Of a DNA stretch of 64,000 bases, positions 7,742 through 55,225 are shown one piece after another. Below the pieces are notes generated by a model, which made no database searches, had not been told where the DNA came from, and saw only the letters and a list, made by a program, of their open reading frames with translations. This stretch comes from Eledone cirrhosa. Taxonomy: Eukaryota. The stretch lies in assembly GCA_964016885.1 (NCBI GenBank), contig OZ024742.1, positions 265,360,001 to 265,424,000 of the forward strand, given 5' to 3'. Each line of letters starts with the position of its first letter. Position 1 is the stretch's first letter. The position numbers and the translations under genes were made by a program.

Positions 7742-7915
7742 ATAAACAATACAATATAATTACCTCATTACCAGAGGTTTCCCGAATAAGACGAATACGA
7801 AAAACGTCGTCATTCGTTCGGCGGATAAGGCATTTTAAAACATAGTGAAATATTTTTCGTATTCGTCTTATTCGGGAAACCTCTGGTAATGAGGTAATTA
7901 TATTGTATTGTTTAT
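7742..7915. repeat. Perfect 63-bp inverted repeat derived from a PLE pLTR/HHR
   Basis: 7742-7804 is the exact reverse complement of 7853-7915; homologous to 48975-49088. Confidence 0.92.
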
Positions 7916-8117
7916 TATACATTAAATTTAGCTCTGGCACTTACACAGAGCACTCTTCACTCCTATGACTTTTTCAATTTTCAACGGAAACTTCAATATA
8001 TATATATATATATATATATATATATATATATATATAATTGGTGTAGGATGCTTAAAGCGTCCGTAAGCGGTAGGCTGTTTGAGCACTCGATGCTCTTACA
8101 GAGCAGAGTATGATATC

Positions 8118-8291
8118 ACATAAGAAACGGAGAATCAGTGTTGCGACGAGGAATGATCGATGTAATGATCGAACCTGACACTGAAATCGCAAGGTCCTCA
8201 GAGACATTTCGAGACGTATCTGAGGACTTTGCGATTGTAATATGTCTAATAAATTTTATTCGTCGCAACACTGATTCTCCGTTTCTTATGT
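8118..8291. repeat. Nested inverted repeat centred on TCGA (8209-8212)
   Basis: Outer 32-bp arms 8118-8149/8260-8291 and inner arms spanning 8185-8236. Confidence 0.88.
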
Positions 8292-8681
8292 TATATATAT
8301 ATATATATATGTGTGTGTGTGTGGGGGGGGGGTATATATATATGTGTGTGTGTGTGTGTGTGTGTGCGTGTGTGTTTATATATATATATATATATATATA
8401 TATAAATAAATATAGGCTGTCCCCTTTATAAACAGCCTGCCAACAAATATATTTTAGATAACAAATATATTTAATGTGAATAAAATTAATTTAATGAAAA
8501 AGAAAAAAATATATAAAATAAATTTGCATTTATTCTAATTGCAAATACACATACATACATGTATGTATGTATGTATGTATGTATGTATGTATGTATGTAT
8601 GTATGTATGTATGTATGTATGTATGTATGCATGCATGCATGCATGCATATATGTATCTATATATACATGCATGTATGTATG

Positions 8682-10416
8682 TTCTCTCTTTCTGTTAATT
8701 TCGAGTATATTTTTGACCGGCCACCTTCCTGGTGTCAAGTTGTAAAAGAAAAGAAATTGTCATCCCTTGAATCGCAAGAATGGTTTGCAAATTTTGAACG
8801 TGCCAGCTATCGCAGCCATTTGTAGACTATGAATTAGGAAGCTGCGCTCTTTGTCCGCAAATCCAAGTTCAGTTATACATTGGTCCAAGCGGGTTGGTAT
8901 ATAACCCGTAGCTCCAATAATGATGGATATGAAGCTAAAGGTGTATCTTGGATACTGGATTTGTAAACTCCTCATCAATGATCCGTAGATGTCCTCCTTC
9001 TCCTGTATTTTTCTGACAACGTTTACATTAAGTGGGTAGCTGATCTCCACAACAGAACACGTTTTCAATGTGTGGTCCCAAACAAAAATATCAAGCCGGT
9101 TGTGCTTTAATTTGGTGGCAGTTTTTATTTTCAGGTTCCACCAGTATTCCTTAGTGGCATCTGTCTCAATATATTCTTCCTCGTTTGTTTTTAATTTTGT
9201 TTTCCGAAGTGCGTTCCAGATGGTTCTAGCTATCCCATCGTGTCTCATGGAGAGGTAGTAGCGAGAAGACATTCTTTCGCAGCTGGCAACAATGTGGGTT
9301 ACATCTTTGTTCTTTGTTTTGCATAGCCTGCATATATTGTCAGCTGATGGCCCTCCTCTTTTGTACAGCAGATATTTGGTAGGGAGTTCTTGTTCCTGTA
9401 TTGCAGAGAGATATCCCTCAAGGTGTGATGTCATAAAAATCGGAACTATATGCCAGGCTTTTTGAGGGGTTTATCCCCTCTATGGTCTGTGTTTTACGTC
9501 TCAAGTATCCATGCACAACTTTTTCTGTAAATTGATCAAATATTTCATCTTGTTTGAACATTGAATAGGATCTTCCGATTTCTCTGGGTGAGAGATTTAT
9601 ATCAGGCTTTATTCCATATCTCTCCTCCAGATCAGTGGCTATCCTAATGATATTTTTTTCTTCGTGCTCATAAACCTGGGCAAGATGGTTGCCAACCTTT
9701 TTCCTCTGTTGAAGATGTTGCTTCAGTTTTACTATCCGGGTCTCATATGATGTTAATATGGATTTTAGACCCCGGCCACCTTCCTTGTGTGAGAAGTATA
9801 GCCTATCCACATCACCATTGATGTTAAAGTTCCCAGTAACACTGAGAAATTTGCGAGTTCTAACGTCCATCTCACTTAGTTCTTGCAATGACCAGTTCAG
9901 CAGGCCAAATGTTAGCGTTGGAGTTGGCACAGCATAAGTATTGTGGGTAATGTACTTGTTGTACGCTGACAGTTCTGATGACCATATTTTCTTTACTCTT
10001 CTGAGGTATTCAGTTCTGGTTCTCTCCTTATTTATGGGTCCATCATATCTGATATTGTCATCCTGTCCAAGATATCTGTAGTTGTCACCTGACTGTAGAG
10101 GTTGTATTGTCAGGCCGTTCATCTCTAGATTTCTAGAGGAGGGCACAGCTCTTCCACGTTTTATTGCCAAATATGCACACTTGGACTCACCAAATTTCAT
10201 TTTGATGTCTGTTGAAAATTGTGTAATGAGGTCCAATTGTTTCTTGATGTCATTGATATTTGGCCCATACAAATTCAGGTCATCAACAAAGAAAAGATGG
10301 AAGATACTTCTGGACCCACTTCTTTGTCCACTTTGTTTCCTGAGTAGGTAAGATAGTGGATTTAGTGAGAGAACGAAGAGTAGCACTGACAAGCTATCAC
10401 CGTGAAAGATGCCCTT
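8682..10416 (-). mobile_element. R4/Dong-type non-LTR retrotransposon, 5'-truncated (RT C-half, CCHC, REL endonuclease)
   Basis: KGIFHGDSLS, HLFFVDDLNLY, YRYLG, CRLC...HIVASC, RHD, RLDIFV...VEIS in ORFs 9418-10392 and 8760-9434. Confidence 0.88.
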
Positions 10417-52089: not shown

Positions 52090-52810
52090 TATGAGAGATC
52101 GAATCTTGTTCTAATCCAGATTGCATTTAGCGAAGATTTTCAGAAGCTTATGCTTGCAATTAAATACCTTATCATGCCGATAATTTAGGAGGTCCTTTCC
52201 GGTCACTATTCCGATCACCACCTCTAGGGGCGTCTTTCATTCCAGTATGGACGGGCGAATCTGAACACCGACTGTTGCAGTGCGTATTTAAAACTGGCGT
52301 GCTTCAGGTCTCAGATTATTTCGCTAGGGCTGTGGTTCTAGCTAAACTGGTGTTCTAAACGTGTGGGTGTGCTCATACCATCTCTTCTTGAAATGATTCG
52401 AAGTGGCATCCACATACTTAGATATTAACAGTTTTGATTTGACCACACATTGGTAAACCATGTTTTATTACATACACTTCCCTGATAATGGACATTTGCT
52501 GGTATTACTACAGTTTCAATGTGTCCGTATAGAATGTGTGGGCTCATCTCCGGTTCTTGTGTAGAAGGTGTTATTCTGCATATTTTGTTATTGATCCGAA
52601 TATGTGCGTGATGCAGAAGAGACGTTGGTGTTTGCAGGTGTTCATCTATTCTGTGTTGGAGGCTGCAGATGTTGCTGAGGATTCAGAGTAGTTCAGTTCA
52701 TCTTATGTCAGGGATTTTGTTGGTTGTTGGTACTGTCATACCCCGGGGGCGATTGTTGTTTAATTTCGTGATGAAATTAAGACTATCTGAGATCCTAAGG
52801 GATAACTTTT
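52090..52810 (-). mobile_element. Decayed Penelope-like GIY-YIG region
   Basis: Minus strand NCSNTSKCPLSGKC..NMVYQC and HFKKRWYEHTHTF. Confidence 0.7.
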
Positions 52811-52854
52811 TAACAATGGAGCTATATATATATATATATATATATATATATAAT

Positions 52855-52953
52855 GAGAGAGAGAGAGAGAGAGAGAGAGAGAGAGAGAGAGATAGAGAGA
52901 GAGAGAGAGAGAGAGAGAGAGAGAGAGAGAGAGAGAAAGAGAGAGAGAGAGAG
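52855..52953. repeat. (GA)n microsatellite
   Basis: Seen directly. Confidence 0.97.
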
Positions 52954-55078
52954 ATTCATTTTTTCATTGTGCATGCAATATCATTATCATATCGGCTCCG
53001 CATCATTATGTACTTATCGTAAGAAAATTGCTAAAGGACAACTCCACAGTAGATAGATTCGGGGTTGAGGTAGTTCCTATAAGTGGCTTATATATTTACG
53101 CACATCCCAGGCCTTGGTTAATCGTGTCTCCAAATTACAAAACCCTAGGAATTTAATTACAGACGCATTATAAGAAGACACATTCGAGCTATGCATAAAT
53201 GTTTGTCATTTCCAGCTAGGGCATACTTGTATTAATGCAAACGGACAACATTTTGAGGGTTTAATCGAAATATATAATTTTACAGGAATTGCCTATGCAT
53301 TACTGTTGGAAAATTGCTTCATGTAACTACGGTACCTCTAAACAGTAGCCTAATTAAGGCCCAACCTCTATATATACATATATATACATACATACATACA
53401 TAAAAACAAACATACACATACATATACACGCACACAGGCAGGCACATACACATACATAGATATACACAAACATAACTCAATATACATATATATATATACA
53501 GACATACACATTCATACTCACACATAATACAAACATATTTATATGCATGAATACATGCATACACGCCTACGCACACATACATACATACATACATACATAC
53601 ATACATACATACATACATACATACATACATACATACATACATACATGTAGCTGCTATGTTAACTAGATATTCAGACACCTGCGTCTTGGTGACAACCTTG
53701 ACAGCCTGTCATTTTCAGGCACGAATTTTTTAGGCGATGGCTCGGCGGATAAAACTTGGAGATATAACTGCTACTGTAATAGACAGTATTGCTTGACATA
53801 CCCCTCCCATACATACGTATTTGTGTATATGTATGTCTGTATATATGTATGTGTGTATGAATGTACGTATGTATATATGTATGTGTCTATGTATGTCCAT
53901 GTGCATGCGTGTCCATATATACATATATATATATATATATATATATATATATATATATATATATATGTGTGTGTGTGTGTGTGAGTGTGTGTTTATATAT
54001 ATATATATATATATATATATACATGTGTATATTGTATTGTTGGCCTTCATCTAAATCGCTGGCAATTCTGACTGTAATGTTCGCTCGGTCTACCAACCAA
54101 GGTGAACTGACACCCTGTCATATACACACATATATATATATATATATATATATATATGTGTGTGTATATGGGTGCGCGCGCGTAGTCTCTGTGTGTGTGT
54201 ATGTATGTATATATATATATATATATATATATATATATATATATATATATATATATATATGTGTGTGTGTGTGTGTGTGTGTGTGTGTGTGTGTGTGTGT
54301 GTGTGTGTGTGTGTGTGTGTGTGTGCGTGCGTGCGTATGTGTAATAATAATAATAATAATAATAATAAACTAAAGAAATAAATAAATAGTTTTGAAGACA
54401 ACAGCAACAATAGCTACAATAACGACAACGTTGACGGTGACTGCAACATCAAGAGGATACTAATACTTATGCTAGTAGTAGTAGTAGTAGTAGTAGTAGT
54501 AGTAGTAGTAGTAGTAGTAGTAGTAGTAGTAGTAACAACAATGACAGTGACACTGGTCTGTTAAGTGACAAACTAAATATACTTGGGTCTTCTTGCCATC
54601 ATCATCTTGTTCCATTAGTCGTGTTTTGTCAGCACAAACTGTTGGCAGGTGAGGCTTGTCTTTGCTTTGGCGCGAAGACGATTTTTTTTTCTTAAATGAC
54701 AGTGACAGCATAGAAATGTCGACTAAGTACTTAAATACACACATAAGCAAACACTCTTACACGCAGACATTCACATACTCACAGGTTCAAACATACCCTC
54801 ATATACACTCATAGACACACAGACAATCACATAGAACTGTGCATACATTATACATATGCATTCCCATATATTTTATATATATATATATATACTCCTTATC
54901 CAACCCTATTCAGATTTTAATCTTCACATTTATTATTACTATATATATATATATATATATATATATATATATATATATATATATATATATATATAGAAGG
55001 CGAGTAATATTGTAGAACAATAAAACTGTGCATATATCAGATAAGTAGCACTCAACAGTTGGTAGAACTAGAGTATAT

Positions 55079-55225
55079 ATAATAAAGATGAAATAAAAGA
55101 TGGTTATAAGAGTTACATATATTTTATTGTACGTATTTCGAATATTTCGGATGATTTTGTATTCGAAATACGTATAATAAAATATATGGAATTCTTATAA
55201 CCATCTTTTATTTCATCTTTATTAT
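55079..55225. repeat. Inverted repeat (about 66-bp arms) of a family A-like HHR 3' half
   Basis: 55079-55144 versus 55160-55225; arm reads cGAAA-tacgta-TA-ataaaata. Confidence 0.88.

Follow-up and report, generated by a model that had tools for sequence, protein, structure and literature searches.

Inverted, truncated copies of Penelope-like elements (PLEs) are known from earlier work. As far as the available text of these reports goes, PMC8557442 describes inverted truncated copies, their tails and their (TA)n targets, PMC3846280 found palindromes at the inverted junction and already proposed self-priming, and PMC8969392 adds general description only. The accessible part of PMC11167929 reports a PLE enzyme that nicks the two target strands at AT-rich sites and extends both, with reverse transcription initiated at two positions that delimit the tail, and finds ribozyme cleavage dispensable for insertion in vitro; that of PMC2377424 places an initiator/downstream promoter element (Inr/DPE) promoter, RGACGTGY, within the pseudo-long terminal repeat (pLTR) of Penelope. 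Here we report on five inverted repeats in a 64,000-nucleotide stretch of the 3.0-Gb Eledone cirrhosa genome (contig OZ024742.1, positions 265360001-265424000; hereafter the window, numbered from its first letter). A sequence-only reading had taken them for a class resembling MITEs (miniature inverted-repeat transposable elements), with breakpoints guided by stem II of the hammerhead ribozyme. We found no detectable role for stem II in the breakpoints, and consider it likely that these hairpins are instead separate 5'-truncated PLE insertions, each made of two head-to-head arms of one haplotype, that arose by run-off or stalling of complementary DNA (cDNA) synthesis and were joined through microhomology.

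Results

All five inverted repeats were found in place, with 78, 41, 26, about 236 and 70 aligned columns per arm pair for elements 1 to 5, respectively, and 0-6 mismatches; the arms of element 4 additionally differ by a 43-nt indel. The boundaries given for them by the sequence-only reading were, however, too short: each element has more pLTR or "tail" sequence at one of its sides beyond those limits, and the true extents are approximately 7730-7984, 8036-8296, 43025-43217, 43857-44576 and 54994-55225. The TA-rich surroundings reported before are real, with (TA)n adjoining all five elements at one or both ends, and so is their diversity, as they derive from five different pLTR families (F1 to F5). 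DNA-similarity searches placed every element in a multi-copy family; among the copies retrieved in this way one arm stops at (TA)n and the other usually enters a family-specific tail. Each inverted repeat amounts to a single PLE copy, 5'-truncated and head-to-head, from a family of high copy number, and the proposed PLE origin of the pLTRs is borne out by the parents, whose long copies carry PLE open reading frames (ORFs) upstream of the pLTR.

We defined hammerheads by our own type I descriptor plus manual pairing. The consensus pLTRs of F2, F3 and F5 pass the descriptor, their stem II regions measuring 62, 85 and 36 nt, respectively. F1 pairs by hand (stem I 11 bp, stem II 8 bp, stem III 3 bp), the closing pair of its stem II being A-G, and its core (-60..-54) reads CCGA in 35 of 57 copies and CTGA in 15 of 57. 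Judging by its letters, the CCGA core is likely an inactive ribozyme variant that has spread widely. In F4, CTGACGA and GAAA flank a 6-bp hairpin and the consensus fails the type I descriptor; the hammerhead of element 4 is doubtful. Rfam returned no hammerhead family among the matches listed for the window (150 of 210) and none among the 10 matches for the F1 pLTR.

Arm starts were numbered relative to the anchor motif of each family and compared with the parent hammerhead. Our samples were blind to the junction, being made of exact pLTR 3'-end pattern matches taken in coordinate order on one contig (C1): rows 1-80 of all 2,008 matches for F1, 1-74 of 1,015 for F2 (without row 63), 1-86 of 2,238 for F3, 1-80 of 7,678 for F4 and 1-58 of 12,036 for F5. 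Hits of the DNA-similarity searches were kept out of the statistics because their ranking favours junctions resembling the query. Out of 423 anchored arm reads, 338 of which are abutted by (TA)4 or longer, 34 ran off the locus or the reference and were dropped; the remaining reads gave 158 inversions (one duplicate removed) and 131 plain 5' truncations. Positions are BLAST ends, good to about 5 nt.

An arm starts between the 3' strand of stem II and GAAA+5 in 11 of the 158 inversions (F1 3/30, F2 5/43, F3 0/36, F4 1/23, F5 2/26), against 15.5 arm starts expected under a null that spreads the 121 starts of the pLTR zone uniformly. For the whole of stem II, 39 arm starts were seen and 47.2 expected under the same null, and the ribozyme cleavage site likewise showed no excess of ends (4 seen, 4.8 expected). 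In the F5 subfamily of the window (42 matches with a longer pattern, 30 of them examined), 1 of 11 distinct inversions has an arm in the stem II 3' strand/GAAA interval. Mapping the junctions onto the pLTR consensus sequences, as the sequence-only reading had itself proposed, did not reveal any enrichment in stem II; for stem II, this is the outcome which that reading had given in advance as its refutation. The recurrence that had been perceived there is apparent only, because a short palindrome can only have its break in the last 150 nt or so of the pLTR; since the ribozyme fills much of this stretch, size selection makes small palindromes break in or near it.

At the level of single elements, the claim of at least one arm start in, or immediately past, the 3' strand of stem II stands for element 5, stands in part for elements 1 and 4, and fails for elements 2 and 3. 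Element 5 is a true match: its inverted arm (54994..55144, minus strand, with a tail) starts in the 3' strand of stem II of the F5 pLTR and its sense arm (55150..55225, plus strand, no tail; GAAA at 55165-55168, predicted cleavage after 55176) also starts in stem II, the two starts being -26/-39 and F5 stem II spanning -59..-24. The inverted arm of element 1 (7730..7855, minus strand) runs from -91 to the end of the pLTR of F1, a Hydra-type PLE, has no tail, and holds the whole hammerhead region with a decayed core. Its sense arm (7853..7984, plus strand) starts at -40, in the loop of stem II (-53..-18 in F1), carries GAAA at 7876-7879 with predicted cleavage after 7888, and continues through the pLTR end into a tail of about 55 nt. 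In element 4, the inverted arm (43857..44297, minus strand) covers the 3' untranslated region/pLTR of the Neptune-type F4 from about -459, with a 43-nt deletion and the CTGACGA...GAAA hairpin at 44035-44062. The sense arm (44298..44576, plus strand) starts at -195, which is the 3' strand of the 6-bp hairpin (TGCAAC, 44301-44306), but reads GTAA, and extends to the pLTR end and a tail of about 45 nt.

Elements 2 and 3 had been mis-parsed; their breakpoints lie at the ribozyme's 5' edge. Element 2 (-121/-121) is a perfect fold at the palindromic word TCGA (8209-8212), 3 nt upstream of stem I. Its inverted arm (8036..8212, minus strand) is F2 pLTR with an internal deletion (-55..-10) and the full tail, and its tailless sense arm (8209..8296, plus strand) retains the CTGAGGA core (8220-8226) and has lost most of stem II and the GAAA through a deletion of -93..-38; the deletions thus differ between the arms and both remove GAAA. 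In element 3, with arm starts of -133/-132, the fold lies immediately 5' of the CTGAGGA core. The inverted arm (43025..43190, minus strand) reaches the end of the F3 pLTR and includes the core, the 85-nt stem II region and stem III, with GAAA changed to GAAT; the sense arm (43192..43217, plus strand) holds the core (43193-43199) and the beginning of the 5' strand of stem II, where (TA)n ends it. The "GAAAC" formerly read in this element overlaps the CTGAGGA core, and the parent GAAA lies 92 nt downstream. The window also contains a larger inverted PLE insertion that had not been listed (44630-48726; 1,228-nt arms, 89% alike, around a reverse transcriptase (RT) fragment at 45751-46245), whose junction is about 1 kb from a hammerhead-like motif at 44731 (minus strand); a similar motif lies at 25105 (minus strand).

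The two arms share a haplotype in all 62 inversions with at least 4 informative sites, and differ at 21 of 927 polymorphic sites, compared with about 414 expected for unrelated copies. This agrees with the earlier proposal that the second arm arises by fold-back or template switch on one template. A two-RNA model, suggested by one F5 inversion (L090), was considered and rejected, with at least 3 diagnostic differences in 0 of the 62 insertions. Away from the pile-up points described below, 18 of 109 junctions are near-symmetric (5.6 in shuffles), and several of these are centred on palindromic words of 4-6 nt, with perfect folds at TGCA, AATT, CTAG and CATATG. Among clean asymmetric junctions, 14 of 36 show microhomology of at least 3 nt, compared with 7% in the null.

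Small inversions are highly diverse, with 78 distinct junction pairs among 81, and most F2 and F5 inversions consist of pLTR only. Classifiable inversions of F1, F2, F3 and F5 (93, with 42 others unclassified) have one tail in 87 cases, two in 4 and none in 2. Of 64 insertions with one tail, 27 carry it on the shorter arm and 19 on the longer, the other 18 being symmetric; this bias is not significant (p=0.30), and a stronger one (48 vs 21) fell to these values once partner arms starting beyond the anchor had been removed. Target-site duplications are unreadable within (TA)n ends. One F3 junction is present in exactly 3 copies genome-wide (L501-L503; C1 80.19, 86.777 and 86.784 Mb), within 6.6 Mb and with largely different flanks; local re-copying of this hairpin is possible.

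We observed that 5' ends accumulate within 5 nt of one point in F2 (-145, 26/107), F5 (-135, 18/68), F3 (-139, 9/98) and F1 (-72, 8/93), with p from 2e-15 to 9e-4 for points picked after the data had been seen. In these four families the point lies either upstream of the ribozyme or where the ribozyme starts, and reads C/A-A-T; in F5 it recurs in a second subfamily. Relative to it, a motif RGWYV stands at +28 in F2 and at +26 to +28 in F1, and in F2 the ends are sparser upstream of the point (8 in 100 nt) than downstream (23 in 60 nt). We take the pile-up point to be the likely, putative transcription start of the pLTR; the motif support for this is mixed. A literature search that covered few subscription papers and no supplements found no paper on a run-off pile-up or on stem II-guided inversion.

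The family parents carry RT and, C-terminally, GIY-YIG motifs. An intact ORF was found for F3 only (784 aa, L393:5383-7734), with RWK, DKT, RT-type motifs, CxCX5C and GIY-YIG, the other families being represented by ORF fragments. Pfam recognised only GIY-YIG (E=7e-5, at the F3 C-terminus), in 1 of the 8 proteins given, and the F3 ORF has 1,014 homologues at E<=1e-10, none of them named among the 120 listed. The Hydra clade is described in section 11 of PMC8557442, as far as consulted, by RWK, DKT, CxCX5C, CxxC and CxH without CCHH. F1 and F3 have all of these motifs, and F2 and F5 have a linker and endonuclease region of Hydra type, although the F2 copy is without a clear CxxC and no core RT motif was read in F2. 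By these motifs, the F1, F2, F3 and F5 parents would belong to the Hydra clade. The F4 parent has an RT, a C-X4-CxxC linker (its first Cys is kept in L115, L123 and L133 and altered in the L427 copy) and, at the C-terminus, a GIY-YIG with CCHH-type residues; its linker and CCHH-type endonuclease motifs point to a Neptune-type element. Two loci (L311, L318) show the layout inverted copy, pLTR, ORF, pLTR.

The window holds further copies of related sequences. Positions 48961-50795 (minus strand) are a longer 5'-truncated F1 copy, of the family of element 1, with a GIY-YIG end; 16674-18346 (plus strand) is a broken RT and GIY-YIG ORF that resembles the Hydra-type parents and gave no Pfam hit; and 12415-13320 is another inverted and partial-tandem pLTR arrangement of a sixth family, with a plausible intact hammerhead at 12939 (plus strand). 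Inverted repeats were also seen at 35263-36568 and 3492-3544. Broken ORFs of long interspersed nuclear element (LINE) type, with RT/endonuclease-like text, lie at 55934-58881 (minus), 8760-10467 (minus), 61084-63540 (plus) and 32241-34536 (plus), and a short repeat at 55240-55345 resembles a cephalopod tRNA-derived short interspersed nuclear element.

Discussion

If the hairpins are separate insertions of run-off or stalled cDNA, several steps may be proposed. Priming at the tail of the upstream pLTR would produce a strong-stop-like cDNA of 110-300 nt, which would end where the transcript starts, by run-off, or earlier, by stalling. In retroviruses, minus strong-stop DNA is a short run-off cDNA that ends at the 5' end of the RNA and is not normally integrated. 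The PLE product would span the ribozyme only because the ribozyme lies in that stretch. The second arm may come from self-priming of the cDNA, or from another priming event, in which the opposite target strand primes on the same RNA; the data do not separate the two, and we lean very slightly towards self-priming. The second copy of the one template would be joined through a few bases of microhomology, and later trimming of palindrome centres may add asymmetry. A wider proposal seems to us evenly poised between true and false, namely that a major product integrated by Hydra-clade PLEs is strong-stop-like cDNA whose priming occurs at the upstream pLTR's tail and whose synthesis runs off at the transcription start of the pLTR, in many cases accompanied by a second arm from the same template.

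A model with stem II either halting the RT or nucleating the fold-back, and thereby making breakpoints recur in its 3' strand, is fitted by element 5 and partly by element 4, and many of the top DNA-search hits of elements 1 and 2 break near this region, though these hits are ranked by their likeness to the query junction. It is highly improbable in view of the lack of any excess of starts in the blind sample, with 0 of 36 in F3 and 2 of 26 in F5, and of elements 2 and 3, which break upstream of the core. We also regard it as very improbable that the hairpins are MITE-like units amplifying as whole palindromes. Copying in trans is conceivable for a palindrome that has two pLTR 3' ends, and the F3 triple junction has mostly different flanks; against this stand its mere three exact copies, all on one contig, the near-complete diversity of junction pairs among small inversions, and the fetched top hits for element 1, all of which had other junctions. 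The notion of assembly artefacts deserves next to no credence, given that the arms differ at scattered private sites (337 of 13,472 compared bases) and in tail content, and that their layout is that of published PLEs.

Two further explanations carry somewhat more weight. The pile-up could mark where the GIY-YIG endonuclease encoded by the element itself nicks, or where a few master copies have their 5' end, with the arms formed as proposed above. The letters at the point are A-T-T or A-T-A, and a preference for 5'-ATT-3' is reported for the anole PLE enzyme in the available text of PMC11167929; moreover, pile-up ends bear no extra, cap-derived 5' G. We consider this unlikely, because the identical point occurs in two F5 subfamilies, a DPE-like motif is found in F2 with the expected spacing and in F1 close to that spacing, and F2 ends thin out upstream of the point, as expected if the template begins there. 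Alternatively, insertions may begin as perfect palindromes and acquire their asymmetry by later deletion at an unstable centre. In many F2 pairs a single arm sits at the fixed point while its partner varies, the two arms of element 2 have separate deletions, and microhomology is common; such deletion leaves unexplained the pairs whose arms are over 1 kb apart in length and whose shorter arm is intact. As a full account it is rather improbable, and it is compatible with, not exclusive of, the insertion of run-off or stalled cDNA.

Several observations weigh against this preferred explanation or restrict its reach. The five main samples come from contig C1 only and from copies matching the anchor exactly. 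L090, whose arms appear by eye to come from two subfamilies, is an exception to the one-template rule. Unassigned bases lie between the arms in 90 of 126 asymmetric junctions (at least 11 nt in 53 of these), so that many joins must be more complex than the model. The tails on shorter arms mean that neither arm is a subset of the other, and plain fold-back copying does not give such tails without later trimming. As to the putative transcription start, deduced from end positions and motifs, no pile-up could be defined in F4, F3 and F5 are without RGWYV at +28, and the missing cap-derived G counts here as well. Finally, Pfam gave no RT family in the ORFs and a PDB sequence search of the F3 ORF returned nothing; the RT identity is supported by motifs and by the comparison with the consulted part of PMC8557442.

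If the proposal for the Hydra clade is true, tens of thousands of copies in the Eledone cirrhosa genome would form a base-level record of PLE transcript starts and of inverted-pLTR formation. A ribozyme-guided class would have tied the PLE hammerhead and the inverted pLTRs, both still without explanation, to each other, and this link failed its test. For the origin of tandem and inverted PLE structures, a question left open in the available text of PMC8557442, our results instead offer countable constraints, namely single-template arms, microhomology joins, no cleavage-site excess and a fixed 5' pile-up, which are consistent with the ribozyme cleavage being dispensable in vitro in the part of PMC11167929 consulted. 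Inverted pLTRs with palindromic junctions were already published, and the run-off pile-up is a modest new lead. In terms of annotation, the hairpins belong with PLE fragments, not with MITEs.

MITEs are short and non-coding, with inverted ends and TA-rich sites. The elements described here share those traits, but they are not amplified as fixed units and their ends are retroelement 3' ends rather than transposase-type terminal repeats. In L1 twin priming, an inversion is joined by microhomology using non-overlapping parts of the RNA; here, in contrast, both arms cover the same 3' end. Non-LTR retrozymes (bioRxiv 10.64898/2026.07.22.740005, as far as available) are similarly non-coding, pLTR-related and hammerhead-bearing, but they are head-to-tail tandems with complete ribozymes, whereas our elements are head-to-head and broken.

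Closer likenesses are found among the PLEs themselves. The RGWYV motif of F2 and F1 resembles the Penelope DPE in the accessible text of PMC2377424. With the Hydra clade, as presented in the available part of PMC8557442, F1, F2, F3 and F5 share (TA)n targets, type I hammerheads, CxCX5C, CxxC (not clear in the F2 copy) and CxH, with RWK and DKT also in F1 and F3; F1 and F3 have repeat units of 3.2-3.7 kb compared with generally <3 kb there; further differences are the stem II regions of 36-85 nt and the C at core position 4 in most F1 copies. F4, assigned to the Neptune clade by motifs, shares its type of RT, linker and endonuclease, and differs in having no descriptor-passing hammerhead in the last 450 nt of the consensus. 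The nearest counterparts are the inverted 5'-truncated pLTR copies of endonuclease-positive (EN+) PLEs (PMC8557442 Fig. 2; PMC3846280), which, in the text available to us, likewise have head-to-head arms, often a tail at one end, junction palindromes, microhomology and AT-rich targets. Relative to those portions of the EN+ PLE papers, in the present work the junctions are counted, a fixed 5' pile-up is shown, and most F2 and F5 inversions turn out to be pLTR-only.

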